IMG/VR virus record: IMGVR_UViG_3300043493_000021
Location: 79 to 64,078 of that record
From: a virus
Direction: 5' to 3' (one strand)
Length of the DNA: 64,000 nt
In this document: piece after piece, positions 3,720 through 27,536 of the stretch
Layout of the letters: each line of letters begins with the position of its first letter
Position numbering within the stretch: position 1 is the stretch's first letter
Notes under the pieces: model-generated
Seen by the model: the letters and a program-made list of their open reading frames with translations, nothing else
Told to the model about the DNA's origin: nothing
Databases searched by the model: none
Program-made: the position numbers and the translations under genes

Positions 3720-6700
3720 CTATTCGGTGGTCTCAAGCTCTCTAGCAGGTTTTTCTTTTACCCCGTAACTCCTGCGGATTACCTCGGAGCGATCGAGTTG
3801 TTTCTGATCCTCGCGACGAGCGGCGCGTCGTTCACCGAGTTGCGCGGCCTTCTCGGCGGCGGCGTTCCCCGCGTCGGGGCGGAGCCAGTCGACGATCTTG
3901 CTGGCGCGGCCCGCCTCTTCGCCCGCGTCGGTCAGCATCTTCGTCGCCTCTTCGTCCTTGCCGTCGTTCACCAGACGTTGCACCTCGGGCATGATCTCGG
4001 CGGTGTCGAATTTGATCATGTCTTCCCGCTTCTTGTTCGATCCGGCGGATGGCCCATACGGATAGCCGCGCGAGAGCGAACCAATCCCGGAGAAGTTGAG
4101 GAGCACCCGGGCGACGGCGAGCCCTCGTTCCCTCGCCGTGGGAGGGGCGTTCCCGACCCAGTGCGAACCCGGAGCGTTCATCGCGATGTAGATGTCCCTC
4201 TCCATTTCGATGGGGAACATCACATGGCTCATGTGTTTGGCGGTGCGCCAGACGTTCTTCAGATCGAAAGCATCGTCGGTCGGACGGCGATAGTCATGGC
4301 CGTAGTCGTCCTTGCCCGACATGAACTGGTTCGCGGCCTTATACATCGTGCTTTGCTTGCGTTCGAGGGTGCCCGCGAAATCGGAGATCCAATCGATCAG
4401 TTCCTCGCCGACCTTGCCCAGCGGCGTCCGCATGTAGAGGTATTGCGGGGTGGATCCGTAAGGCATGACCCGGGCCCGGTTCGTCTTCCCTGGTTCGTTG
4501 TCGGCCATCGGAAGGAGCCGGTTGATGGTCGATGGGATGAACAAAGATTTGAGCGGATTTTCCATGACGTAGTTCACCGTCTCATGGAAGCGCCGGACAT
4601 AACCCTCGGGGACGCTTTCTTCCGACTCCTTGTCATTCATATAATTATAGACCGCCTGGGAAGCGTGCTGGATCAGCATCCCGAGCATGTAGAACGCGAG
4701 CATATCGAGCGCGCCCGTCCACTGGGCCTTCCCCCGCATCCACTTCCTGAACTTTTTCGCCGCCTCCGGACCGGCCTCGGCTTCGACGTGATTGACGATG
4801 TGCATCGGCGCACCGGTCACCACGTCTTTGATGATGCCGAGGTTGCCGCCCGTGAACGACCGCGAGAACAAAAGGAACTGGGCGAGGGTGTTGGCGAGAC
4901 GCGACATGCCCTCGGGAGGGAGCGCCCCGGCATAGCGGTTCGCGAGATGCGCCGCCGCCGTGTAAGCCGCCGTCGGATGCCACCCAGCGGCCAGCCGATC
5001 CTCGGCGACCGCGAGACCGATGGCGATCTGGAGATCCATGACCCGGTTCCAGAGAAGCGTATTCATGGGGTGACGGATCAGCGCGGCCATGGCCTGACCG
5101 CCACGCGGAGCCTTCCCCGCGAAGTTGGCCAGGGCGTTGCGGATGTCCACGACGGCCTCGCCCACCAGGCCGAACCGCGATTTGTAAGTGAACTCGTTCA
5201 TCAGCGAGACGGGATCGCCGATGAAACCGCGCATGACCGGTGCCATGCCGTGTGCCACCAGCGTATCGATCCGGGGATCTTCCGCCATTCTGGCTCGCCG
5301 CCCGACGGCCAGGGCGGTGAGAGCGACGAACTTGCCCCCGGTAAATAGCGGGCCCGCCCGGCCAAGCTCGACCTGAAGATGGATCAGCGGGGATTGCATG
5401 ACGAAGTGGGTGCTGACCGCTTTCACGGCCATGAACCCCCGCATCAGGGCTCCCGGAGCGGCCCGGAAGACCGCGTCCAGCGGGGCCCGGAAGGCTTCGT
5501 CGATGAAGATGGCTTGCTTCTCGAAGACCGGGTTGCCCTTCGAGTCTTCGACGACCTTCCCGTAACGATCGAACGTCGGAACCATCTTATACATGGAGGG
5601 GTGACCGGCCATGTAGAACCCTCGTTTAGGGGGGGCTCCCGACGTCTGGGTATAGCCAGCCGCGATGCCATTCTTCGTGAGGGACATGATCGCCTGAAGC
5701 AAATCATGCCCGGCGATGGCCGCGTGGATCCGCTCCAGAGCGCCGACGAGGCCGACGATGTCGTCGACCAGTTGGACGTTTGGACCATACTTCGCACGCG
5801 CCGCGTCGAGCGTGTCCTGGATCTCCTCATAGTTCCGGAACCGGGGGATCTCGGTCGTCAGGTTGGTGCCGAACGGGTGCATATCTGGCGTCGGCGTGCG
5901 GCCCCATCGCGCTCGCGGCGTTCCGCCCGGAAGGATCGCGTCGTCCTTGATGATGCGCCGCGCCTTCTTGCCGGGCTCCATGATCACCAGTTGCCGGGGC
6001 ATCCAGTAAGCCCAGCCCTCGGCGTTGGGATCGACCATTCCCCGGCTCTTCAGTTGATTCCAGTAGTCTTCCTGGATCGCTTTCAGACCATTGACGAGAG
6101 CCTTGCCTTTCGGTCCGAGCCCCTCGACGCCCATCTGGGTCGCGTCCCACCGGGCCCGCATCTGGGCCTCGTAACCCGGCTGGGGAAGCGGGGATGTGGT
6201 CGCGAGTTCACGGGCAAGCTTACGCTCGAAGACCGATTGCTCGGCGACCGCGCGTCCGATCGCCCATCGCTCGTCGATCTTCTGGGTGTCGCGGATCATC
6301 TGGGCCAGTTGGCCGAACTTGCGCTGACCCTGACGGATGTTGTTGGCGAATTTGAACGCCTCCTCCCCCGCCTCCTTCGGACCGAGGCGGAGCGGGGCCA
6401 CGAACTCCAGATAGTAGTGGCGGGCGTCTTCGTATTTCGGCTGATCCTGGACCCACTTAACCAGATCCTTGATCGGCTTCCCGGCTTCGAGCCCGAAGGC
6501 GTTATCTACTTCCTGGGTGGAGAATAGTCGGCCCTGGACTGCTCTTGGAGCGACCACCGGACTCCCTCCAGCGCCTGGACCACCTCCGGTGGGTGCGGCT
6601 GGGGCATTGCTTCCAGTCGGCGTTGGAAGTCCAGCAACTCGCTTCGCGGTTGGAACGGCGAGGGTATATCGATCATGTAGTCCACGGCTGGCTCTCCTCA

Positions 6701-9700
6701 TGGCGTCCAACGCCACGTCTGGAAGGATATATGTAGACGAATAGTTAATAATTCCATCCTGGGCCAGGAGTCGATTCAACGCATCGCCATACGCGATTTG
6801 CACCTCCGCATGTGTCATATCCCCGAGCACCATCAGCTTTTGGAAGATCGGGATCATCTCTTGCCGGTAGCCTTCATGCGATCTGGCCAGCGCGTTTCCG
6901 AAGCCGTTCGCCATGTAAGGGTTTTCGGTTCGCTGACTCGGATCCGGTAGCGATACGGTGAAGGTGTGTCCCGCCGGGATGTGGGCGACGACATTGGTTA
7001 TGCCAGGCGACGTCAGCATTTGCAGGTCGCCCGCCGAGATCGAGGTTTCGTTCGGGTGGTTGTGGTGGATCGTGTAGGCGTCGACCGCGCCGTAAGTGTG
7101 CGCCCGTTTGAAGGAGACGGTCAGCCGTTCGTTGGCCGTCCCGGCATGGATGATCCGCCCCGTGGCGTTCTCGACGACGGCGAGATGTTCAAACCCGGTC
7201 TGAGCGCCTCGGGAGAGCACGAACTCCATCGCCGCCTCATGCCCACCATCCGGATTTTGGACGAGGTGAAGCTCATCGGTGAAGTTCGGCACCTCGTCGT
7301 GCGCCCATTTTGAAACCGGTGGCGGCGGAGCGGGGGGTGCCGGTGTCGCGGCGCGGGGCTCGAAGAGACCGGCTTGCTCGACCCTCGGGGCGAACAATCC
7401 CTCGTCGGCGGCTTTCTGGTTTGGCTTCGTCAGACGTCCGGTCCCGGTCTGATCCCGCGCGATCTGGGCCTGAGCCGCCGACGGCCTCATCCCCGGCATC
7501 TCGACCTGGTTCGGATCGTTGCGGATCGTCGGCTCGCGCGGACCCCTCCCGGCGGACAAGTCGCCTTGCTTTTGTTCGACCGATTGATCTTCCCACGGGA
7601 CTTCCGTGACTTTCGATACTACGTCGTGGTGGAACTCGTGGCCTCTCGCCACGTCATGCGCCTCCAGCCGATCCTTGAAGTCTCCGACTTTATACCATGG
7701 CGGCTCTGGCTCGCCCGGCCTTGGTTCCGGGCGAGTATGAACGGTCCAAAGCGAGCCGGATGACTCAGCTTCAGGTTGATCCATTTCCCTTCTGGCCCGA
7801 GCCATGGCTCTTCGGCTGGGGACCGGCCTCATGCTTCGGAACGACCCAGGCGTGTTCGCCAGCATTCCGTTCTCGACCCCCGGCGCGTATTGCCGGGCTC
7901 CGTATCCCTCGTAGATCCGCCCCGAAGCGTCGCGGCCAAAGAGCCGTTGGATGGCCTGGACGAAGCGGCGGAAGATGTCGCGGAAGTGCGACCAGATCGA
8001 CCGGACGACGGCGTCCTGGATGTCCATCTCGTTGAAATGACGGTCCGTCATCGTCTCCGCGAAATACTCGGAGAGGTTCGTGTAACGGTAATTCTCGCGG
8101 GTTACCCGCATCCGAACCCGTGGATTGGCGGTGCCCGCTCCGGTGACCGTGACGCTCCTCATGGCCTCCGGATTTTGACCGTGCCGGGTGATCCAGTCGA
8201 CGGCATTCAGATCGGTCAGTTCCCGGCGTAGCTGGCCCTGGCCGTCCATAAACTCCCGCATCCCGGGGTTGTTTCTGAACCACCGCTCCCGCTGACGATG
8301 AAACTCCCTCGCGAGCGCGAGCCGATCTTCCCGGGGTAGCATCCGCTCCAGCGAATGCCACAACTCATGGACCATCGTATGCGGCACCGAGCCGTTGTCG
8401 ATCGCCGCCCGGAATAGAGAAACGACATGGCTCAGGGGGTCGTATAGCCCCGCCGCGCCATGGCCATGTTGCAAGATCCGGAGGCCGACATCGGTGAACA
8501 TATGCTCGCCGATGAACTGGATGAACTGATCAACCTCCCTGATCGCATCAGGATGGATCGTCGACGGTGGACGGTCCGCATGTTGCCGCGACCGATCCAG
8601 GTTCGCTTGCATCCGAAGCCGGTTGATCATCGCCTCGGGGCCGCGACGGATCACACCCACCCGAGAATTATTAAGAGCGGTCCGCATCGGGGCCATACCA
8701 CCGGCCCTCGGCGCGAGGGAGAAGAAGCCGCCCTGGCCCTCTACTGGGGGTTCTGGGCCTTCGCCCGCTTCTCCAACGCCACCAGAAGTATCGCCTGGTC
8801 GTACAGCTTCGTTCTCTCCGCGTCGGACAATCCCACGGACCTGGGTGAGGAACTGGCTGACGAGGCCGGGGAGGGCTTTCCCTCCTGCAAGGTCTGAAGC
8901 GAGCCCGGTAAGCGCGTCAGAGATTGGCCCTTTAGAACTGGCTTGCCGTTCAAGAATATCGAGAAGTTGCTCATTCTCGGTTTTAGCCCGGACGTTACCC
9001 TCGCGGTCAAGCTGATTGCCCGCCGCCGTCAATGACTCCTCGCCCCGGACCGCCGCGCCGAAGACCCGCTTGTTGCCACGCAGGTTGGCCTTCGCCCGGT
9101 CCAGAATGCGCGCCCGCTGGGGAAAGAGCGACTGGATGGTCGGGCCCATGCCCTCCATCTCGGTCTGACCGCCCTCGACATCGCGCGTATAGCCGGTCGC
9201 GACGATGTCTTTGACGATGCTCCGCGCTTGCTCGGAATTGTTCGGCTCCGCACGCGCCAGCACTGAGAGAGCGGCTACCTGCTGGGCCGGATCGGCGATC
9301 AGATCGCCGACGTGCGCCGCGTATCCGGGGGGCACGATGCCGTTGACGACGATGCCGAATGCCTCATCGCCGAGCTTGGCCAGCGCGTTGCCTTGCTGGA
9401 CCATCTGGCTCCGGGGCGGGAGCGAGGGGAGCGCGCGATCTCCCGGAAGCGCCACCTTGGCGCGAAGAACTTTGGCCGCGTCGATCGCGGTGCCGCTTCC
9501 CTCGGCGATGTTCTTGTAGGCCGCGAGCACGCGCATGTGTTCTGGCGTGTAGCCGTCCGCCTCGCGGTAGACGCGGGCTGGCATCTCGACATTTGGCTGA
9601 CCGGCGGCGGTCGCCCGGGTCGCGAGATCGTGCCGCTGGTGACCGTCGGCCACCCAATACTGACCGGAGTTGTCTTGCCAGGCCATGATCGGGCTGGCGA

Positions 9701-11816
9701 GATCGGACTCCCATTTGGTGGTGCCGCGAAGCACGCCGGTCACGCCTTGCTCGTCGCTCTCCTTGAACTGGAATCTCTTGGGATCGACCTGAAGCTGGTC
9801 GGGCCGAAGCATGACGTAAGCGCCAGTTTGCGGAGCGGCGGCGGTCGGTTCAGAGGTAACGGGCGTCGGTGTCGGCGTCGCGTCGCTTCCGATCGTCACG
9901 CCCGGAGCGACCTCGGTCGGCGTCGTCGGCGGCGTGACCGTCTCGACCGCTGGCGGCGTCGGTCCCGGCATCGGAATGACCGGGGGTGTTTCGAGCGGGG
10001 CTCGCGGTGCCGGGGGAGGAACCGGAGCCGGGAGTTGCGGTGTGGACTCTACTGGCGGGGGCGGCTGAACGGCGGGTGTCGTCCCCTCACTTTGCGCCGT
10101 CGTCGGCTGGGTGCGCTCGGCCTGGGGTTGCTCCACCGCTGGACCCGGATCGTCCACGCGAGGCGCGGCACCGGGAGCATACGTCTCATCCACCGCGCCC
10201 GGACGCCATCCTTCCGGTTTCGGCGGCTCCGGAACATTGGGAGGCCACCGCCGGTTCATCTCCTCTCGGGTCGCGTCCCATTCCCGTCGGTGAGCGTTGA
10301 CCCGATCGTCAGCCGACGGCGCTCCCCGGTAAGGACCGACCTCGGTGGAGGAAGACGCACCGGGCATTTCGATGTTGAGGTTCTCGGGATAGAGCCGACG
10401 ACCGAGCCCGATGGCGGCGTCTCGCGCGTCGCCCATGATCCTGTGTGGCGCATGGAACGCGGCCCCGGTGATCGCCTGAAGCGCCATCTCCTCGGGATCG
10501 CCGACATGCTCGGTCAGAGCCTGGGACGGGCTGAACCCATACTTCACGATGGCGTTGTCGATGATGGTCTGGGTCTGCATGATGCCGACCATCGATCCGC
10601 TCGCCGTGGCATAGTCGATGAGCCCGCCGAGCACCGGGCCTTTCAGGCCGGGAACGAGGCGACCGAACAACTGAGCCCCCGGAATCGACATGAGACCCGC
10701 GCTGACCAGGCCGCTTGCCATCGCGGCATCGTGCGCTTGCTGGGGTGACGCGCCCCTCTCCTGGGCCCGCTCGAACATCCCCTCGTAACCCTCAAGGAAG
10801 CCGACGCCCATCACTCCCGGGAGCCCGCCGATCGCCGCGCCGACCAGGATCGGGGCCATGCCGCCAGCCATTCCGGCCAGTTTCACCACCGCGCGTCCCT
10901 CGTGAGAGACGTCCACCGGGGCGTTTCGTTCGCTCTCCCTCCTGGCGGTTTCGACGATGCCACCCGCGAGGGACGGCTGGGGGTTGGCCGTGACCGTGCC
11001 GAGACGAGCTTTGAACTCAGCCCGCTGGCTTTCATTCATATATTGATAGCCGGATGGATCTTGCTCGTCGGGGACCGTCTGACCGGCGTCGATCTTTTGG
11101 ATCGCGGTCATCTGACCCGACGTCAGAAGCGCTCCGAACCGGTCCACCATGCGAGGGACCGCCGCGATGGTGGTCGCCAGCCCGGTCTCGGCACCCTGGC
11201 GGAACTTGTTGAACGCGGCCCCACTCAGTCCCTGGCCGGGAACCCTGGTTTCCAGTTCCTCATCGCCGCCCGTTTGCTCGGCATAAGTGAGGCCGGACGA
11301 GTCGGGCTGGCGCTGGTCGGGGTAGATCAGCCCCGAACGGACCTGTTCAGAAGTATAAGGTGTCGGAGCGATGTCGAGCCGCTGAACGATCGGGCGCTTA
11401 TTCGGGTCGGGAGACGGCTTACCCGAGACCGAGGGTGGGGGCGTGGAAGGCGTGAAACCTTCACTCGCCAGCCGCGTGTATTCGTCCTCGGTCTCCTGGT
11501 CCGGGGTCATGGACTGACGCCGCGTCATGGCGGGAGGTTGCGGTTGCTTCGGTGGCTCCTCGGTCGTCCACTTCCAGGGGTCTTCGGTCTTTTCGACCGT
11601 GGGTTCAGCCGTGGCTTTCGGCTTTTCAGTCGTGGATTTCGCCGGTTCGGGCGTGGGTTCAGGCGTGGCGGGAGCGGCGACCTTGGCTGGCGGAGGGGTG
11701 GCTGGACGCGGTGGGACCGTTATCCAGTCCCCAGGATCCTTGGCTCCGCCCGCTTTCGGGACGGTGACCCAGTCGTCCGCCTCGTCAAGAGCCGTCTGGG
11801 CCATAGGTCGTGCCAT
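3720..11816 (-). CDS. Giant polyvalent internal-virion/ejection protein (ParB-like, zincin metallopeptidase, JAB-like domains)
   Basis: 2698 aa. ParB-like YWVADGHQRH (~9630-9660); zincin MVHELWH (8355-8369) with downstream SEYFAE (~8055-8070); JAB-like GFEHL...IHHNHPNETSISAGD (7026-7190). Position after the internal virion genes is typical of podovirus ejection proteins. Confidence 0.7.
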   Translation of the reverse strand: MARPMAQTALDEADDWVTVPKAGGAKDPGDWITVPPRPATPPPAKVAAPATPEPTPEPAKSTTEKPKATAEPTVEKTEDPWKWTTEEPPKQPQPPAMTRRQSMTPDQETEDEYTRLASEGFTPSTPPPSVSGKPSPDPNKRPIVQRLDIAPTPYTSEQVRSGLIYPDQRQPDSSGLTYAEQTGGDEELETRVPGQGLSGAAFNKFRQGAETGLATTIAAVPRMVDRFGALLTSGQMTAIQKIDAGQTVPDEQDPSGYQYMNESQRAEFKARLGTVTANPQPSLAGGIVETARRESERNAPVDVSHEGRAVVKLAGMAGGMAPILVGAAIGGLPGVMGVGFLEGYEGMFERAQERGASPQQAHDAAMASGLVSAGLMSIPGAQLFGRLVPGLKGPVLGGLIDYATASGSMVGIMQTQTIIDNAIVKYGFSPSQALTEHVGDPEEMALQAITGAAFHAPHRIMGDARDAAIGLGRRLYPENLNIEMPGASSSTEVGPYRGAPSADDRVNAHRREWDATREEMNRRWPPNVPEPPKPEGWRPGAVDETYAPGAAPRVDDPGPAVEQPQAERTQPTTAQSEGTTPAVQPPPPVESTPQLPAPVPPPAPRAPLETPPVIPMPGPTPPAVETVTPPTTPTEVAPGVTIGSDATPTPTPVTSEPTAAAPQTGAYVMLRPDQLQVDPKRFQFKESDEQGVTGVLRGTTKWESDLASPIMAWQDNSGQYWVADGHQRHDLATRATAAGQPNVEMPARVYREADGYTPEHMRVLAAYKNIAEGSGTAIDAAKVLRAKVALPGDRALPSLPPRSQMVQQGNALAKLGDEAFGIVVNGIVPPGYAAHVGDLIADPAQQVAALSVLARAEPNNSEQARSIVKDIVATGYTRDVEGGQTEMEGMGPTIQSLFPQRARILDRAKANLRGNKRVFGAAVRGEESLTAAGNQLDREGNVRAKTENEQLLDILERQASSKGPISDALTGLASDLAGGKALPGLVSQFLTQVRGIVRRGENEAVRPGDTSGGVGEAGEGPEPPVEGQGGFFSLAPRAGGMAPMRTALNNSRVGVIRRGPEAMINRLRMQANLDRSRQHADRPPSTIHPDAIREVDQFIQFIGEHMFTDVGLRILQHGHGAAGLYDPLSHVVSLFRAAIDNGSVPHTMVHELWHSLERMLPREDRLALAREFHRQRERWFRNNPGMREFMDGQGQLRRELTDLNAVDWITRHGQNPEAMRSVTVTGAGTANPRVRMRVTRENYRYTNLSEYFAETMTDRHFNEMDIQDAVVRSIWSHFRDIFRRFVQAIQRLFGRDASGRIYEGYGARQYAPGVENGMLANTPGSFRSMRPVPSRRAMARARREMDQPEAESSGSLWTVHTRPEPRPGEPEPPWYKVGDFKDRLEAHDVARGHEFHHDVVSKVTEVPWEDQSVEQKQGDLSAGRGPREPTIRNDPNQVEMPGMRPSAAQAQIARDQTGTGRLTKPNQKAADEGLFAPRVEQAGLFEPRAATPAPPAPPPPVSKWAHDEVPNFTDELHLVQNPDGGHEAAMEFVLSRGAQTGFEHLAVVENATGRIIHAGTANERLTVSFKRAHTYGAVDAYTIHHNHPNETSISAGDLQMLTSPGITNVVAHIPAGHTFTVSLPDPSQRTENPYMANGFGNALARSHEGYRQEMIPIFQKLMVLGDMTHAEVQIAYGDALNRLLAQDGIINYSSTYILPDVALDAMRRASRGLHDRYTLAVPTAKRVAGLPTPTGSNAPAAPTGGGPGAGGSPVVAPRAVQGRLFSTQEVDNAFGLEAGKPIKDLVKWVQDQPKYEDARHYYLEFVAPLRLGPKEAGEEAFKFANNIRQGQRKFGQLAQMIRDTQKIDERWAIGRAVAEQSVFERKLARELATTSPLPQPGYEAQMRARWDATQMGVEGLGPKGKALVNGLKAIQEDYWNQLKSRGMVDPNAEGWAYWMPRQLVIMEPGKKARRIIKDDAILPGGTPRARWGRTPTPDMHPFGTNLTTEIPRFRNYEEIQDTLDAARAKYGPNVQLVDDIVGLVGALERIHAAIAGHDLLQAIMSLTKNGIAAGYTQTSGAPPKRGFYMAGHPSMYKMVPTFDRYGKVVEDSKGNPVFEKQAIFIDEAFRAPLDAVFRAAPGALMRGFMAVKAVSTHFVMQSPLIHLQVELGRAGPLFTGGKFVALTALAVGRRARMAEDPRIDTLVAHGMAPVMRGFIGDPVSLMNEFTYKSRFGLVGEAVVDIRNALANFAGKAPRGGQAMAALIRHPMNTLLWNRVMDLQIAIGLAVAEDRLAAGWHPTAAYTAAAHLANRYAGALPPEGMSRLANTLAQFLLFSRSFTGGNLGIIKDVVTGAPMHIVNHVEAEAGPEAAKKFRKWMRGKAQWTGALDMLAFYMLGMLIQHASQAVYNYMNDKESEESVPEGYVRRFHETVNYVMENPLKSLFIPSTINRLLPMADNEPGKTNRARVMPYGSTPQYLYMRTPLGKVGEELIDWISDFAGTLERKQSTMYKAANQFMSGKDDYGHDYRRPTDDAFDLKNVWRTAKHMSHVMFPIEMERDIYIAMNAPGSHWVGNAPPTARERGLAVARVLLNFSGIGSLSRGYPYGPSAGSNKKREDMIKFDTAEIMPEVQRLVNDGKDEEATKMLTDAGEEAGRASKIVDWLRPDAGNAAAEKAAQLGERRAARREDQKQLDRSEVIRRSYGVKEKPARELETTE

Positions 11817-14800
11817 CGGCCCGACGGGCCCGGTTCAGTTTCGCGCTATATTGATCGCCCGGTTGCACCCACGACGGCGCGGTTCCCGTCGGTGGTGTCA
11901 CGGCTTGCTTCGACGGGGAGGAGAGCGAGGGGCGCGGCGGCGTCGAGCCCCGGAGCTTCGCGTCCTGAGCTTGCACTTCCCTGACGACATCGGGGTATCT
12001 CTTCCCGGGGTTCAACGCCCAGATGCGAGCCGAGTCCGAGAGGTAGCCACGGATCCGCGCATCATCCAGACCCTGAGCCCGCAAACGGTTTCGCTCATCG
12101 CTCGCCGACTGGCTATTCAGGATTTGTTGCTGGCGCAAAGCCAGACCTTGCGCGGTCATGTCGAGCCGCTGATCCCCTTGCCTCTCCAGGACGCCGTTCC
12201 GGGTGATCCTGATCTCGCGCGACGCCGCCGCATCAGCCGACCTGGTATCCTGGCCGCGTCGACGATCTTCCGACACCTGACCGGCAATATCCCGTTTTGT
12301 CTCGTCTCCCGCGTAGAAGAGTTCACCCTTCTGATCGATCTTGAGGAGATCCCGGTCGTTCTGAAGATTGTGGTTCCGAATAAGCTCGTCGATCCTCCGG
12401 TTTCTTTGCTCAGTCGTCGCGTTTCCGTTCGCCATCTTCCATTGGTTGAACTCCGAGATGGCGGCGTCGCGGTTTTTCTTTCGATCGACTTCTTGTTGCT
12501 GGATACTCAGGCGTTCATCGCCTTGCCTCCCCAGCCGATCTTCCCTGAGCCCGGCGTTCTTCGCCTGAGCGGCCCGCCAGACGGCGTTGGTCTTCGCCAC
12601 ATCGCGACGGGTCGCCGCCGCCTCCAGGGTTTGTTGCTCTTTGTCGGAGAGCGCGATGCCCTTCAGCGCGCCAGCACCTACGTTCACGAGGGCGTGGGGA
12701 GAAGTTCCGCTCATGATGCCGAGGCCGACGTTCATCAGCTTTTGCCAGCCCGAGACCTTCGGATTGTCCTCCTTATCCTTATCGGCGTCGGGCGATCCCG
12801 CTTGCACGGGAGGTGCTGGTGGCGGTGCCGGAATACCGGCCCCCGTATCGCCGCCGCCATCGGATGTATCGGCGGCGGGAGGCGGCGGAGCGTTCACGTT
12901 GGCCGGGGTGATGATGCCCTTCGCGCCCGCCGGGGTTGGCGATGTGCTCGCGCCCAAACCCACCAACGAGTCACCGGGACCGGATGCCCCCGTTGGATCG
13001 GACATGGTCCGGAGGGGTCGCGCCAGATCAGGCGGGCTCGACATGCTTCGATCGGCCCGCCTTCCAATGGTGAGGCCCGTCTCCGGATCGCTCGAATCGA
13101 TGGTGTATGGATTGCTCCCCAGCATGGATGACTCGTCATAGGGATCACCACCCCCAGCAAGACCGACGATCCCGCCGCCACGCGCGACGCTCTGAGTCCC
13201 GGCCATGAAGGCCCGATACCTCTGGCGCACCGCCTCGTCGGCTTCCTTTCCCTGACCGGTCGAGAAGGTGCCGTAACGCCCGATGGCGCGCTCGTAATCG
13301 CCGCCGTTCTTGTCGAGCATCTTCCGAAGATACCCCGCCGCTCCCATGATCGCTTGCTGGGGATCCCACGGATCGATTTGCATTTCCGCCGCCGTGCCGG
13401 GCTTGAACTGGCCGATGCCCATGGTGCCCGAGAGGCGATTGTAGGCTTTCGGGTTCCACCGCGACTCGGTCGAGAGAAGCCACGCGAGTTGCTTCGGATC
13501 CACCCCGTATTTGGCGGCGGCTTGCTGAACCACGGGAGCCAGTTCGGGCGGTGGCGGCACATAGCCGGGGCCCGCTTGCATCGGCACCGGACCGTGCGGA
13601 CCTTGAGGAGCCGGTGACGCGGATCCGCCTTGGGGAGGGGCGATGATGCCCGCGCCCTGGGGGACCGTCGGCCCGCCCATGTAGCCTTCCGGCAAACCCA
13701 GCGTGCTATTCACGCTCGGCGTCGGGTCGCCAACGTCGGGGATCTTGATGTCGACGTTTTGCTCGGGCTCGGCGGGAGCGCGCGGCGCTTCCTGGGGAAT
13801 GTCGCCGCCTTCCTCGCGACCGATCCGGCCCCCGAATGCCTCGCCGCCTCCGCCACCGTCGCCCATCGAGTTAAACCCGGGCAAGTTATACGAGAAGATC
13901 TGACCCGGCACATCGGACTGGCGAACCAGGTGGCCCTCTCGGTTATAGATCGCTCCCTGATGGGTTCCGTCGCCTGGGAACGCTTGCACGTAAGCCGGAT
14001 CCATCAGGTATTCGAGTTGGGCGGGCGTCGCCTGAACGTAGCCCCCGGTCGTCCCCGGGGCACTCTGGTTGGGGATGTGGTAAATGTTGTGTTCCGGATC
14101 GTCTTTCGGCACGTCGGGCACGCTTTTGGCGGGACCGTTCGTCGCGGCGACGGGCGGAGGAGGCGGCAAGGCCACCCGGCCCTTGGCCTGGCTGGCGAGG
14201 TAATCGTCCACCGAACCAGACGGCGCGATCCCCGCTCCACCACCGCCACCACCGGTCAGTTGCGGAATGCCCGGACCACCGTGTTTGCTTTCCATGATCG
14301 AAACGCTACCGCCGCCATCCAGCCTCGGCACGTTGCGATACATCTCGTCGTTGTCGATGATCCCGCCGCCACGGTCGAAGTGAACCTGGGAATTGAACGC
14401 CGATCCGGCGGCGGCTCCCGCCGGTCCGCCCCAAAAGGCGGCGGCGATCTGCCCGCCCGTCTTAATAAGAGAGCCGAGTTCGCTATCCTTTTGCGGTCCG
14501 CCGCTCGTGGTCGCGGTTTGCCCAAAATCCCCGAAAATTTTCCCCTTGCCGCCACCCGCGATGCCTTCGGGGACGACGCTTCCCTCATCGAGCGGTTTGG
14601 TCCCGTCGAGCGGTCCGATGCCGCTGGTCGGTCCACCGAAAGCGTAGCGGGGAATGATGCCGCCACCGACGGCGCGACCCGGGATCATTCCTCCACGCCG
14701 ATAGATCCCACCAGATGATGGATTAATGCCCGAAAGGGCGGGATCGACGCCGCCATAGGACGGGGTTGTCCAGCTACCACTAGACCCGCCGCCACTTCCG

Positions 14801-16368
14801 GTCAGCCAGCCCTCTTTCCCGAAAGCGCCGCTTTGTCCGAGAGCCCCAACGCCCGCCGTCGCGAGACCTCCATACTGAGAGGCGAGGCTCGGACCCGGCG
14901 ATGTGGTCGATCCGGTTCCGCCCGACGCGCTACCGAGACCCTGGACGATGTTGGATAGCCAACCGGTGGTCTGGAACGGATACGCCTGGTTCGCTTGCCA
15001 TTCCTGGTAGGGAATGTTCAGCCCGGCCTGAGCCTGACCTTGCTCCATTCCGCCGACGCCGAGGAGCGCGTTCGACCCCGTCAATCGCGAGTTCAACGCC
15101 TGATTGCCGAGGCTTCCCATGCCCCCGGCACCTTGCATGTTGAGCCAGCCCTCGGCTTGCTTCGCGCCGAGTTCGGCCCCTTGCTGGTTGCCGTAAAAAC
15201 CCAGTTGCGTCTTGGCGGCATCCGAATACGCCTGAGACTGGCCGGTCGCTCCCCTCAGTCCGAGATCCCCGGCTGATGTCGCGGTTTGCGCCCCAAGACC
15301 CCCGGCTGATGTCGCACCCTGAACGCCGAGTTGTCCCGATGCGATGGCACCCTGGAGAGCCTGGGCACCCGCGTTGGTCGCTCCTTGCACACCCAGTTGC
15401 CCCGAGTTCGTCGCCCCCTGAACGCCAAGTTGTCCGGCGTAATTCGCGCCCTGAACGCCAAGCTGACCGGCGTTCGTGGTGCCCTGGATCCGTTGCCGAC
15501 CTTGCTCTTCCGCCGCTTGCGTCGCTTGCTGGTAGCCCGTGCTCCGAAGCTGGGCCATGATCGGATCCTGGGCTCGGGCTTGCTGGCCCGCGATGATCCC
15601 CTGAGCCACCGCTGACCGATCGCCACCCCACGCGCCGCGTCCGATGGCGTCGCCGATGATGCCTTGTTGCTGGATATCGTTCTGATTTTGAAAGTCCCGT
15701 CCCATCGCGTCGACCACGCTCTGGGTATAGGGATCCTCGAATTGCCTGATGCTATCCGGCCTGAACGTCCCGGTCGCACCCAGAATGTTCGACACACCCT
15801 GGCCGGTATAGTCGTAGATCGTGTCGACGCCCGCCTTGGTATAGTTGTCGATATTGCTGACGCCCTTGGCGGTCTGACCCAAGATACCCTGACCACCAGT
15901 CGAAGAGGCGTTGTTGATACCCGTCTGGCCAGCGGCGGTCTGGCCCCATATCCCGCTGACCCCGGCGTTCCCCGCATTGTAGATGTTGTTCGCGCCCTGA
16001 CTGGCCGCGTTCCCAATATCGCCATTGGCGGAGGCATCCAGCCGACCCATGGCCTGACCCGGCATCGCCGCCATCATCCCCGCGTCGGGGTGCGTGGAAT
16101 TATCCCAGATCGGTTGCGTGGCCCGGTCGATGTATTGCGCGCCCGCGTTTATGTAGGGATCGGAAATGCCCTGAGCGTTTCGCACGCCCTGGATCCCGGC
16201 TTGCTGATCCGGCGAGAAATCCGCGAGCTTCTGACCTGGGTAGGGCGAATATGGCGCACCCGCGACGCCGGTCGCGCGCTCGGTGATCTTCTTATAGGCG
16301 TCGAGATACTCCTGGGGAGGGGCATTCGAGGTGGTGGTCGTGTTGGTATTGCCGCCGCCGCCGCTCAT
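11785..16368 (-). CDS. Internal virion (ejection) protein with lytic transglycosylase (SLT) domain
   Basis: Start reassigned to ATG 16368 (MSGGGGNT), which overlaps the upstream stop (ATGA). SLT motifs AAAKYGVDP...LLSTESRWNP...MGIGQF...AAGYL...AIGRY at ~13270-13535. N-terminal Gln/Gly/Ala-rich region. Confidence 0.8.
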   Translation of the reverse strand: MSGGGGNTNTTTTSNAPPQEYLDAYKKITERATGVAGAPYSPYPGQKLADFSPDQQAGIQGVRNAQGISDPYINAGAQYIDRATQPIWDNSTHPDAGMMAAMPGQAMGRLDASANGDIGNAASQGANNIYNAGNAGVSGIWGQTAAGQTGINNASSTGGQGILGQTAKGVSNIDNYTKAGVDTIYDYTGQGVSNILGATGTFRPDSIRQFEDPYTQSVVDAMGRDFQNQNDIQQQGIIGDAIGRGAWGGDRSAVAQGIIAGQQARAQDPIMAQLRSTGYQQATQAAEEQGRQRIQGTTNAGQLGVQGANYAGQLGVQGATNSGQLGVQGATNAGAQALQGAIASGQLGVQGATSAGGLGAQTATSAGDLGLRGATGQSQAYSDAAKTQLGFYGNQQGAELGAKQAEGWLNMQGAGGMGSLGNQALNSRLTGSNALLGVGGMEQGQAQAGLNIPYQEWQANQAYPFQTTGWLSNIVQGLGSASGGTGSTTSPGPSLASQYGGLATAGVGALGQSGAFGKEGWLTGSGGGSSGSWTTPSYGGVDPALSGINPSSGGIYRRGGMIPGRAVGGGIIPRYAFGGPTSGIGPLDGTKPLDEGSVVPEGIAGGGKGKIFGDFGQTATTSGGPQKDSELGSLIKTGGQIAAAFWGGPAGAAAGSAFNSQVHFDRGGGIIDNDEMYRNVPRLDGGGSVSIMESKHGGPGIPQLTGGGGGGAGIAPSGSVDDYLASQAKGRVALPPPPPVAATNGPAKSVPDVPKDDPEHNIYHIPNQSAPGTTGGYVQATPAQLEYLMDPAYVQAFPGDGTHQGAIYNREGHLVRQSDVPGQIFSYNLPGFNSMGDGGGGGEAFGGRIGREEGGDIPQEAPRAPAEPEQNVDIKIPDVGDPTPSVNSTLGLPEGYMGGPTVPQGAGIIAPPQGGSASPAPQGPHGPVPMQAGPGYVPPPPELAPVVQQAAAKYGVDPKQLAWLLSTESRWNPKAYNRLSGTMGIGQFKPGTAAEMQIDPWDPQQAIMGAAGYLRKMLDKNGGDYERAIGRYGTFSTGQGKEADEAVRQRYRAFMAGTQSVARGGGIVGLAGGGDPYDESSMLGSNPYTIDSSDPETGLTIGRRADRSMSSPPDLARPLRTMSDPTGASGPGDSLVGLGASTSPTPAGAKGIITPANVNAPPPPAADTSDGGGDTGAGIPAPPPAPPVQAGSPDADKDKEDNPKVSGWQKLMNVGLGIMSGTSPHALVNVGAGALKGIALSDKEQQTLEAAATRRDVAKTNAVWRAAQAKNAGLREDRLGRQGDERLSIQQQEVDRKKNRDAAISEFNQWKMANGNATTEQRNRRIDELIRNHNLQNDRDLLKIDQKGELFYAGDETKRDIAGQVSEDRRRGQDTRSADAAASREIRITRNGVLERQGDQRLDMTAQGLALRQQQILNSQSASDERNRLRAQGLDDARIRGYLSDSARIWALNPGKRYPDVVREVQAQDAKLRGSTPPRPSLSSPSKQAVTPPTGTAPSWVQPGDQYSAKLNRARRADGTTYGPDGS
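15240..15490 (-). repeat. Coding tandem repeat with 33-bp (11-aa) period, GQLGVQGAxxx
   Basis: QGTTNAGQLGV QGANYAGQLGV QGATNSGQLGV QGATNAGAQAL QGAIASGQLGV QGATSAGGLGA. CCCTGAACGCC recurs in the DNA. Confidence 0.85.
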
Positions 16369-25561: not shown

Positions 25562-26248
25562 TCAGTCGATACCGGCCTGAATGGACTGCATCACGGCTCT
25601 TCCGGTTCCAGCCGTGATCGTGAGGCGGTGTGCCATGATTGGCTGATCCGCGTAAGTGGTTTCGCCGTTCGCGGTCTTGCCCTGGAGAGTGCCGTTCGGC
25701 CAGGCCAGCGGCGCGACATAGCTCGCCGGTTCCAGCGACCATTGCTCGGGCATCGCGGTGAGCGTCGGGCCGACGTCGTTCGGATCGTCGTAGGTGTGCT
25801 CGACCGTGTAGGTCACCGTTCCGGTAACCGAGACGGCGACCGTGAGCGCCCAAACCGTGGCGAGGTGATTGTCGAGAACCCAGGGGCTGGAGGCGACGCC
25901 GTTCGTTCCCACGGTGATCGCCCCGGTGGTCGCGGCACTCGTGGCGATGCTCGTCACCGTCTTGAAGTCGAGCGCGGTCTGGCCCGTGGCCGTGCTGGTG
26001 ACCCCGGTAACCGTCGAAGAGATGGGCGATCCGTTGGCGTTGGTGCCGTTCACGGTGAAGATCACCGCCGCGTCGTTACCGGTGGACGCAATGGAGACCC
26101 GACGGGGGACATCGAGAACCGCCACGCCGCCGGAAACCAGGGAACCGCCTAAAACCAGGTTTCCGGCGGTTCCCGGCGTTTGCGAAAGGGCGATCCCGTT
26201 GGCGACCAGCGCCCCGAGTTGCAGGATTACGACGGAAGGATTGGACAT
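25562..26248 (-). CDS. Virion structural protein (unknown family)
   Basis: 228-aa Thr/Ala/Gly-rich ORF with RBS GGAGG, in the head gene cluster. Confidence 0.6.
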   Translation of the reverse strand: MSNPSVVILQLGALVANGIALSQTPGTAGNLVLGGSLVSGGVAVLDVPRRVSIASTGNDAAVIFTVNGTNANGSPISSTVTGVTSTATGQTALDFKTVTSIATSAATTGAITVGTNGVASSPWVLDNHLATVWALTVAVSVTGTVTYTVEHTYDDPNDVGPTLTAMPEQWSLEPASYVAPLAWPNGTLQGKTANGETTYADQPIMAHRLTITAGTGRAVMQSIQAGID

Positions 26249-26267
26249 CCTTTGCCTCCCGTCCGCA

Positions 26268-27536
26268 TCAGAACTGGGTGACCCCGAACATGTATTTCGG
26301 TTCGGCGGGGGTGGACCGGATCATCGCGCCCACGTTGATGATCTGGCGCATTTCGAGACGTCGGCCCGTCATCACCAAACTGGTGATCGCGCCGTTCGAG
26401 GCGTTCGCGCCGATCCCCGTTCCACCACCGGAAGCGCTTACCTGGATCACGCCGCGAGGGTCTCCGGTGATCGCGGTCGCCGGTTCGGTCTGATCGGGAG
26501 CCAGAAAACCGACGTTCGATGCCATGGAAGCACCATTCCAGAACACCGTCGTCTCTTCCCAGAACGGAGCCCGGAAGTGGAAGGCGAACACGTCCCCGGT
26601 TCCTACCGTGTAGTTGTGCGTGGCATCGGTGAAGAGCGGCGTGACCGTGCCGATCGCCTTGAAGCACTTCTTCCCGTAGGTCGTGACCGCGCCAGCGCCC
26701 GCCGTGACCGTCTCACGCATCGGGACACCGTAGATATCCCAGCCCGCGACGGCGATTTGCCCGCCCGTGCCGCCCGCGACCCCGGTGATCGCCACATTGC
26801 GCGCGATAGCCTGACGAGGATCGAGAAAAAGGCCCGGACCACCCGCCATGAACGGATAAGCCGCTTGCGGAAGCGGGAAGCCCATCGGCGATGGGCCCCA
26901 CAGATCTCCCGTTCCAACGGGAGCGGTGGCGTTGGTGAACAACGCGGCATTAGCGAGAGATATGGTGGTCGCCGTGAGGATCGAAGCGACCTGGGTCAGA
27001 AGTGGAGCCGTCCCGGCGCTATTACCCAGAGAGCCGATCACCAGCGGCATACCCACGGTGTAGAGCCGAGAGTCGGAAACGATGACCGTGGTGCTACCCA
27101 GGGTGGCGTTGACGAAGCCAAAACCGAAGTCGAGCACGGCGGCGGCGACCACCGGGGCCGCGCCAAACACGGAATTGGAGAAGGGACGGATCGGCACGTT
27201 GCGGGTGACGCCCAAAGAGGCGTTCGCGAACGTCATCGGCACGTTGATCGTCAGCACCTGACCGGCGGCGATGTTCACCGCGCTCACGGGAGCCGGAACG
27301 GCGGAGACCGAACGGATCTCCATCGCATCCTGGAACGCCTGAACGACCCCGGTATAGCCCTGGACCTTGTCCTTCATGTAGGCCATGCGGGGATCGAGAA
27401 TCCCGATGCCCTGATAGAAGAGCGACGGGCCCGCGTCCGAGTTTGGATCGACTACCGGGGAGCCGAAGTAAGCCGCCAGGTAAGCCTGCATCGAACCAGG
27501 GACATGCAGCGGCCCATCAAAAATGCTAGTGGCCAT
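26268..27536 (-). CDS. Virion structural/decoration protein
   Basis: 422-aa ORF directly after the major capsid gene, RBS GGAAAG, beta-rich. Confidence 0.6.
   Translation of the reverse strand: MATSIFDGPLHVPGSMQAYLAAYFGSPVVDPNSDAGPSLFYQGIGILDPRMAYMKDKVQGYTGVVQAFQDAMEIRSVSAVPAPVSAVNIAAGQVLTINVPMTFANASLGVTRNVPIRPFSNSVFGAAPVVAAAVLDFGFGFVNATLGSTTVIVSDSRLYTVGMPLVIGSLGNSAGTAPLLTQVASILTATTISLANAALFTNATAPVGTGDLWGPSPMGFPLPQAAYPFMAGGPGLFLDPRQAIARNVAITGVAGGTGGQIAVAGWDIYGVPMRETVTAGAGAVTTYGKKCFKAIGTVTPLFTDATHNYTVGTGDVFAFHFRAPFWEETTVFWNGASMASNVGFLAPDQTEPATAITGDPRGVIQVSASGGGTGIGANASNGAITSLVMTGRRLEMRQIINVGAMIRSTPAEPKYMFGVTQF

Follow-up and report, generated by a model that had tools for sequence, protein, structure and literature searches.

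The middle of a giant phage protein encoded in the DNA stretch studied here (64,000 nucleotides, hereafter the window) is occupied by a JAB/MPN superfamily domain with a complete predicted zinc site, and a second, small gene lies directly behind this domain, overprinted in the +1 reading frame. As judged by a sequence profile, the small gene is homologous to the free-standing genes that follow the same domain where it forms the C-terminus of phage MuF proteins, and its modelled product covers the active site. We consider that the two probably form a cassette, in which a swappable, virion-delivered effector that is harmful to bacteria is silenced in the producing cell by its overprinted antidote; the toxicity and the delivery of the effector are the parts of this proposal that we infer. 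The features on which the argument is built are collected in Table 1.

Table 1. Positions of the features discussed, in window coordinates
Feature	Position	Strand	Basis and remarks
Giant polyvalent protein gene	3720..11816	minus	2,698 aa; matches to phrog_10691, phrog_21, and ParB-like phrog_1033
ParB-like domain of the giant, aa ~660-1000	8817..9839	minus	phrog_1033; marker for collecting related giants
HExxH zincin motif, aa 1150-1154	8355..8369	minus	Motif in translation
Transglycosylase-bearing ejection protein with five x-x-G-G motifs	11785..16368	minus	Pfam/PHROG matches, motif count
JAB/MPN-fold zinc-hydrolase domain (predicted), aa 1512-1712, core aa ~1522-1625	6681..7283	minus	Homologue alignment, model
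Catalytic set E1543, H1585, H1587, S1594, D1597	7026..7190	minus	Spacing H-N-H-x6-S-x2-D; codons 7190-7188 (E1543), 7064-7062 (H1585), 7058-7056 (H1587), 7037-7035 (S1594), 7028-7026 (D1597)
Helical hairpin typical of the clade, aa 1633-1686	6759..6920	minus	AlphaFold2 model; predicted partner docking surface
Nested gene, 59 aa, GTG start (alternative ATG at 6676)	6506..6685	minus	+1 frame; putative antidote/active-site inhibitor
Shine-Dalgarno AGGAG, 8 nt ahead of the nested GTG	6694..6698	minus	Sequence

The Giant Gene and Its Surroundings

The window belongs to a 70 kb phage sequence record with a GC content of 62%, which is 67% complete; no integrase was found in this incomplete record. 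Its largest gene encodes the giant polyvalent protein, and upstream of it, on the same strand, lie the terminase, portal, major capsid, and tail genes and the gene for a 1,527-aa transglycosylase-bearing protein. A location after the virion genes would be the usual site of ejection proteins in short-tailed phages, and the giant gene is probably the last in the ejection-protein block of such a phage. This position suggests that virions carry the giant protein and inject it; DarB of phage P1 is an example of a packaged protein (PMC6630229). The sequence-only reading had placed the domain in a giant ejected protein, and the setting in an ejection-gene block is supported here, the ejection itself being suggested by gene position.

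A ParB-like module, an HExxH motif, and the JAB domain are combined in one giant protein whose neighbours are ejection, tail, capsid, portal, and terminase genes, and this is the arrangement of a polyvalent protein. The ParB-like domain is probably DdrB-like; a search of the giant protein with the Pfam ddrB-ParB model gave no match. By analogy with the polyvalent proteins described by Iyer et al. (PMC5512222), the HExxH motif may mark an autoprocessing metallopeptidase (MPTase type).

The JAB/MPN Domain

The sequence-only reading had pointed to an intact E...HxH...S..D signature and to a JAB/MPN-like protease domain at positions 6900-7230. The signature is confirmed: GFEHL starts at aa 1541 and the histidine motif at aa 1584, a comparable motif appeared in only 0.44% of shuffles of the giant protein, and across 161 homologous segments the five residues are conserved at 98% (E), 100% (H), 98% (H), 96% (S), and 99% (D). 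A full-library search retrieved 242 relatives of the domain. The place given for the domain was right and its extent too short: the domain extends over about 7283-6681 and takes in a conserved helical hairpin as well as a last strand, and in the homologue alignment the conservation continues past the earlier limit up to about aa 1697.

The proposed fold is borne out by an AlphaFold2 model of aa 1512-1712 (pLDDT 97, pTM 0.92), which comprises a JAB core, the helical hairpin, and the last strand. The best PDB matches of the model are all JAB/MPN or deaminase folds, each of them individually weak (Foldseek E 0.008-0.02, above 0.001); those listed are RadC, AMSH, JAMM1, Rpn11, BubCD, a bacterial Ubl deubiquitinase, and Cap3, and then deaminases, all weak and tied. 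JAB/MPN proteins also occupied the top rows in three PDB searches, at Z scores of just 5-6.2. The top VIA match was P. furiosus JAMM1 (Z 6.2, rmsd 3.8 Å, 110 residues), and BubCD (Z 6.1), the bacterial Ubl deubiquitinase 8tyy (Z 5.4), and Cap3 9ild (Z 5.1) were also scored. Because RadC lies within about 1.7 Z of the Ubl isopeptidase matches, the structural Z score cannot separate isopeptidases from RadC. Far closer shapes (TM 0.6-0.74) were found among unnamed domains of phage MuF, minor-capsid, VG15, and portal clusters. The charge of the domain is -8 (the family median is -5), and the homologue alignment contains just one moderately conserved basic residue. On the alignment and the model together, we regard the domain as a real JAB/MPN domain, with the superfamily fold and the E/H/H/S/D zinc site in place; zinc binding and catalysis are predicted.

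The canonical JAMM motif is E-xn-H[S/T]H-x7-S-x2-D (PMC300881). It was rejected for this domain, which has H-N-H-x6-S-x2-D; the x6 spacing occurs in 142 of 150 members of the clade and the asparagine of H-N-H in 138. HNHP is present as in RadC, with a loop one residue shorter than in 2qlc (x7). The giant protein of the window is matched by no JAB model of Pfam or NCBIfam. Among the 150 members, weak Pfam matches were obtained with RadC (PF04002; 17 members, best E 2.9e-4), Tox-JAB-1 (5 members), and Prok-JAB (PF14464; 2 members, best E 0.003), the NCBIfam RadC model matched nine members, and Tox-JAB-2 matched none. Membership of Prok-JAB was rejected, the giant having no PF14464 match at E up to 1, and membership of RadC by profile was rejected as well; the curated cut-off was the threshold for both. 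It should be mentioned that a Tox-JAB assignment was also tried and discarded, because neither a Tox-JAB profile nor a cognate immunity family (Imm65, Imm-NTF2-2) is matched by the domain or its partner. By motif and profile, then, the domain is a predicted JAB/MPN superfamily enzyme of an unnamed phage clade, for which RadC is the nearest family by sequence and of which it is not a member by profile.

Pfam, PHROGs, and NCBIfam offer no name for the JAB domain or for the partner, and neither the JAB domain nor the C-terminal chassis gave a match as a single-sequence query against viral contigs. In literature searches that were thin on subscription journals, we found no work on the JAB clade, the partner family, or the nesting, and nothing relevant on phage JAB deconjugases, nested immunity genes, or tested JAB toxins.

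A Partner Gene in the +1 Frame

Where the JAB domain is the C-terminal part of a MuF protein, it is followed in all 18 testable cases by a coupled ORF of 48-77 aa. These free-standing partners form one family, are mostly acidic, and share an I-D-x-P start and two helices. In the giants, no partner gene was found after their own stop codon. All six frames were searched with a profile made from the 18 free-standing ORFs alone, and the top hit among the 1,280 six-frame ORFs of the genome (30.3 bits, E 2e-8; the runner-up reached 7.0 bits) was an ORF that overprints the linker of the giant at aa ~1711-1771, directly behind the JAB domain. By this score, the nested ORF is homologous to the free-standing MuF partner.

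The same layout was seen in other giants. For 20 of the 21 distinct internal JAB copies with DNA, a partner is located just downstream and always in the +1 frame (two of them at only 8 bits); the profile used for this final tally included nine nested sequences, each of which had earlier scored 24-45 bits with the independent profile. In one giant the JAB domain occurs four times and is accompanied each time by a partner that has an ATG and a Shine-Dalgarno sequence, and the sole partner-less internal copy has lost His and Asp ligands. The partner is absent from the loci of JAB-less relatives in a profile scan. Among giants known as protein alone, a strict host-frame shadow of I-D-x-P was found after 56% of the JAB copies, against a background of 5%; the near-constant presence of the partner is a statement on the loci with DNA. 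The only in-frame antidotes found inside giants were in P0087, which is a JAB-partner fusion, and weakly in P0122.

The codon pattern of the overlap also bears on the reality of the gene. The +1 frame, which contains 2-9 stops over the JAB core, is free of stops over the partner. Within the overlap, the third codon position of the giant is the most conserved one, with 58% identity versus 35% in the JAB core, and the amino acid identity is 37% in the nested frame (a value somewhat inflated by the nested-frame-guided alignment) versus 27% in the host frame. From co-occurrence, homology, and codon pattern, we conclude that the nested 59-codon gene is real, its product being a predicted protein. 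Because no sigma-70 promoter-like site was found in 6400-7400, there is no support for the nested gene having its own promoter; terminator-like sites were also not found in this region.

The predicted product consists of two helices (pLDDT 82). It has no meaningful PDB match, which says little for a 59-aa hairpin, no usable Atlas match, and no convincing Pfam or PHROG family. The charge of the nested partners varies from -7 to +8. Both the domain and the partner are present in three phages in culture, Sinorhizobium PBC5, Agrobacterium Atu_ph08, and Ruegeria 45A6, and the nested gene is unannotated in all three. It lies at about 19905-19702 on the minus strand of PBC5 (AF448724.1) and at about 26137-26346 on the plus strand of Atu_ph08 (MF403009.1). 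The sequence-only reading had missed the nested gene, which is the most informative feature of the locus.

Carriers of the Cassette

Among the 64 giants closest to that of the window in the ParB-like region, 35 have a JAB domain and 29 have none. Identity to one relative is 94-97% in the ParB region but just 37% over the JAB region, and a diverged JAB copy is present in the closest relative, P0156. The JAB cassette is, in other words, swappable and dispensable among close giants. The same JAB domain is also found in DarB-like methylase-helicase giants and at the C-termini of MuF proteins, and the carriers indicated by shape comparison are the MuF, minor-capsid, VG15, and portal clusters. In a tree, the MuF-type and giant-type copies are mostly separate (6 changes versus at least 19 when shuffled), and no direction of transfer is read from it. 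It is also observed that the density of Q-x-x-L-F words, which are clamp-binding-like, is raised about 3.5-fold in the 150 aa around the domain on either side.

The Predicted Complex

A model of the JAB domain with zinc and the nested protein obtained a complex score of 0.80, compared with 0.00 for the best of three controls. This score is a confidence value and not an affinity; 58 of 80 solved complexes attain its mark, as do 2 of 110 mismatched pairs, counts that apply only roughly here. At least 66% of the contacts agree between runs, and the pLDDT of the partner is at least 78. The modelled interface includes E1543, H1585, H1587, S1594, and D1597: residues 4-6 of the partner contact the Ser and the Asp, Phe11 sits in the hairpin, and the second partner helix lies on the hairpin. 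The list of contacts raises the possibility that Asp6 of the partner ligates the zinc, and the model suggests an open cleft. No solved complex resembling the partner was found. The partner is predicted to be an inhibitor that occupies the active site, and the model supports this role and does not prove it.

A Proposed Effector with an Overprinted Antidote

We propose that, late in infection, the giant protein and the 59-aa partner would both be made, the latter by translation of the +1 frame from the internal ribosome-binding site. The two helices of the partner would dock on the helical hairpin of the enzyme, and its N-terminal I-D-x-P strand would lie across the zinc site; the enzyme would be silent in the virion-building cell because this strand covers the zinc site. 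The giant protein would then be packaged and injected. In the new host, the enzyme would be free of its partner, which may be lost on delivery, and would hydrolyse a general bacterial target, and this hydrolysis would aid takeover or slow the host. The cassette has two layouts, in which the partner is either a separate gene behind the MuF stop codon or overprinted on a linker within the giant gene. The need for an antidote suggests that the target is common in bacteria, and with a partner predicted to plug the active site, the pair looks less like a ubiquitin-type protease than like a toxin with its own antidote.

As for the chemistry, we lean slightly and tentatively towards zinc-dependent amide (peptide) hydrolysis of a host protein that is not ubiquitin-like, over nuclease or nucleotide chemistry, because JAMM sites hydrolyse amide bonds, the domain is acidic with few conserved basic residues, and the model places the partner across the site as an extended chain. 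The same cassette could instead act on nucleic acids or nucleotides, as a RadC-like nuclease (the alternative named in the sequence-only reading), a deaminase, or a nucleotide hydrolase, and this alternative, which concerns the chemistry only, we hold to be possible and rather doubtful. RadC models are matched by more members than any other JAB model, the fold is common to deaminases, the clamp-binding-like words are denser near the domain, and RadC and toxin JABs have been argued from context to be nucleases (Iyer 2017, PMC5512222; Zhang 2012, PMC3482391). However, that published idea is itself a prediction; nuclease activity of such JABs was proposed over a decade ago, and our literature search found neither a test of it nor an experimental JAB nuclease. 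The acidic domain, almost without conserved basic residues, also speaks against such substrates, as do the nested partners, which are unlike DNA mimics because their charge is not consistently acidic.

Three other readings give the enzyme or its partner a different task. The sequence-only reading had suggested that the injected enzyme strips host ubiquitin-like conjugates as an anti-defence function, as a Cap3- or BilC-like isopeptidase would, and we regard this as unlikely. The JAB site is intact, Ubl isopeptidases are tied at the top of the structural matches, an injected mimic of Cap3 is plausible given that CBASS is dampened by Cap3 deconjugation (PMC10419184), and a broad deconjugase might harm ThiS or MoaD chemistry and hence need an inhibitor. 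A narrow deconjugase, on the contrary, would help the phage-producing cell, so that a near-universal, dedicated, predicted active-site blocker would be unexpected and is left unexplained. Moreover, the motif differs from that of JAMM and only two of the 150 members match Prok-JAB; the closeness of RadC in Z means that structure does not single out isopeptidases; no linked ThiS or lambda-I Ubl gene was found in the 67%-complete record; and no literature on such a phage enzyme was found. The sequence-only reading had also proposed that the enzyme processes the GG-motif proteins of the phage itself. A maturation protease for the x-x-G-G motifs of the ejection proteins, blocked by the partner until packaging, might seem to fit the five motifs in the upstream ejection protein (of the form [R/F/Y/L/M]-[A/D/E]-x-G-G) and the two in the gene before it, with the inhibitor acting as a timer, but it is very improbable. 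The 29 close giants mentioned above lack the JAB domain, 2-5 motifs persist in the same protein of four relatives without the JAB (L014-L017), none of which has a JAB in the 10 kb on each side, and JAB-positive MuF and DarB loci have 0-1 motifs; the GG motif and the JAB domain therefore do not travel together. The separate HExxH peptidase motif of the giant provides an alternative processor. Finally, the partner might be a chaperone, an activator, or a packaging adaptor or tag of an enzyme that is harmless to the host. Co-occurrence and predicted binding would suit any obligate partner, and the in-frame fusion in P0087 may be cited in favour of this role, but it appears improbable to us, given that the predicted interface covers the catalytic residues, that the layout is that of toxin-immunity pairs, and that a catalytically dead copy (a single case) has no partner.

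The injected effector with its overprinted antidote is thus the explanation that we prefer. Our confidence is evenly balanced on the wider model that this JAB clade is toxic through a substrate that is not ubiquitin-like, that it is checked by a new family of zinc-site plugs, and that giants absorb such cassettes by overprinting the antidote.

Relation to Known Systems

The themes combined here are already known, each separately: JAB domains in polyvalent and MuF proteins, toxin-immunity pairs, and nested genes. MuF toxins have a toxin-immunity layout with a downstream immunity ORF (Jamet 2017, PMC5576092); that paper makes no mention of JAB or RadC. The MuF polymorphic toxins (PMC3482391, PMC5576092) share with the present system the same JAB clade in the C-terminal toxin slot, the coupled small ORF, and, for the giant presumably, virion delivery, whereas the window encodes the domain within a chain of 2,698 aa, with the partner overprinted in the +1 frame. 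With a polyvalent protein as its carrier, the proposed cassette would work in the manner of a MuF or polymorphic toxin-immunity pair. As in toxin-immunity systems, the domain has several carriers (giants, DarB-like proteins, and MuF proteins) and a small gene downstream of its terminal (18/18) and internal (20/21) copies. Tox-JAB-1 (PF15659) and Tox-JAB-2/DUF4329 (PF14220) are likewise JAB toxins with cognate immunity proteins (PMC3482391), but they are secreted Rhs-type toxins and their immunity proteins are Imm65 or NTF2-like.

With the polyvalent proteins (Iyer 2017, PMC5512222), the giant shares its character as a giant modular late protein, the ParB-like and HExxH modules, virion-gene neighbours, and swappable enzymes. 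RadC-type JABs are listed in that study, mainly in conjugative elements, and overlapping genes are never mentioned; the JAB of the window differs in belonging to a clade of its own, marked by the helical hairpin and the nested partner. RadC-like JAB (PF04002, 2qlc) shares HNHP, is the nearest family by sequence, and was the top Foldseek row, while the window domain has the shorter loop, an extra 55-aa hairpin, and a partner gene. The JAMM/Prok-JAB isopeptidases (PfJAMM1, Cap3, BilC/BubC, AMSH, and Rpn11) share the fold and the E/H/H/S/D zinc site, and differ in motif spacing, in sequence (10-14% identity), and by the dedicated predicted active-site blocker found here; lambda tail protein K also belongs to this group. 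Small same-strand genes that lie wholly within a larger gene are known from lambda Rz/Rz1 and from comS in srfAB of B. subtilis. In the present case, by contrast, the nested gene is a putative antidote to a domain of its host gene and is free-standing in other phages.

Implications

The nested gene explains how a probably toxic domain can lie in the middle of a giant protein without an adjacent immunity gene: the gene is present, out of frame, where annotation misses it. The cassette also bears on the long-standing question of the function of RadC-like and toxin-type JABs. With the antidote available, cloning of the enzyme should be feasible, and cultured systems exist in PBC5 and Atu_ph08. 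If the partner does block the JAB zinc site, it would represent a new type of JAB inhibitor, small and of natural origin. If the proposal is true, standard annotation overlooks a layer of phage immunity genes.

Partner ORFs and JAB copies

Across all loci with a partner, the small putative antidote ORF behind the JAB domain, every one of the 20 nested partners lies in the +1 frame of its giant polyvalent protein gene, and 15 of the 18 free-standing partners lie in the +2 register of a stop-start overlap. In the protein P0087 (262 aa), the JAB domain and the partner are joined in one frame; the fusion could be natural, or it could stem from a frameshift or an error in the sequence.

Two to four diverged JAB copies occur per protein in P0033 (locus L053), P0044, P0048, P0050, P0073, and P0136, and some copies in these proteins have a longer loop leading from the His pair to the Ser. 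At L054 (8246-8605), which encodes the giant P0073, a tandem pair of partner-family ORFs in the +1 frame stands behind a single JAB copy and immediately precedes the third, catalytically dead copy; the pair is possibly an orphan or stacked antidote.

Motifs and shape matches

Motifs of the window's giant protein
Motif	Window	Giant aa	Remark
Q-x-x-L-F	7373-7359	~1482	also in homologues
Q-x-x-L-F	6533-6519	~1762	also in homologues
HExxH	8355-8369		same protein as JAB
E-Y-F-A-E	8055-8072		downstream of HExxH

Up to 150 aa from the JAB domain, Q-x-x-L-F words occur at about 3.5 times their density in the rest of the giants. These words resemble sliding-clamp-binding motifs, and they may be generic linker words. 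HExxH and E-Y-F-A-E together mark a putative zincin-type peptidase, which is another candidate for the enzyme that would free the JAB module or cleave at the GG motifs.

Against BFVD, the weaker shape matches of the JAB-domain model (window 6681-7283) include uncharacterised proteins from two kinds of virus: large DNA viruses of eukaryotes (ASFV F317L, EsV-1-200, and proteins of a Bathycoccus virus and of Harvfovirus) and a rod-shaped archaeal virus. The matched proteins may be unrecognised JAB-fold proteins.

Split and mosaic giant genes

At L010 (16957-17908), the giant gene P0004 is apparently split close to its end, and the ORF that follows looks like a continuation of the C-terminal chassis, which is whole in P0005. 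Compared with the window giant (3720-11816), P0156 is 94% identical over aa 647-1037 and 37% identical in the JAB region, its middle is wholly different, and its C-terminal third has no match. This sharp mosaic suggests recent recombination among giant genes.
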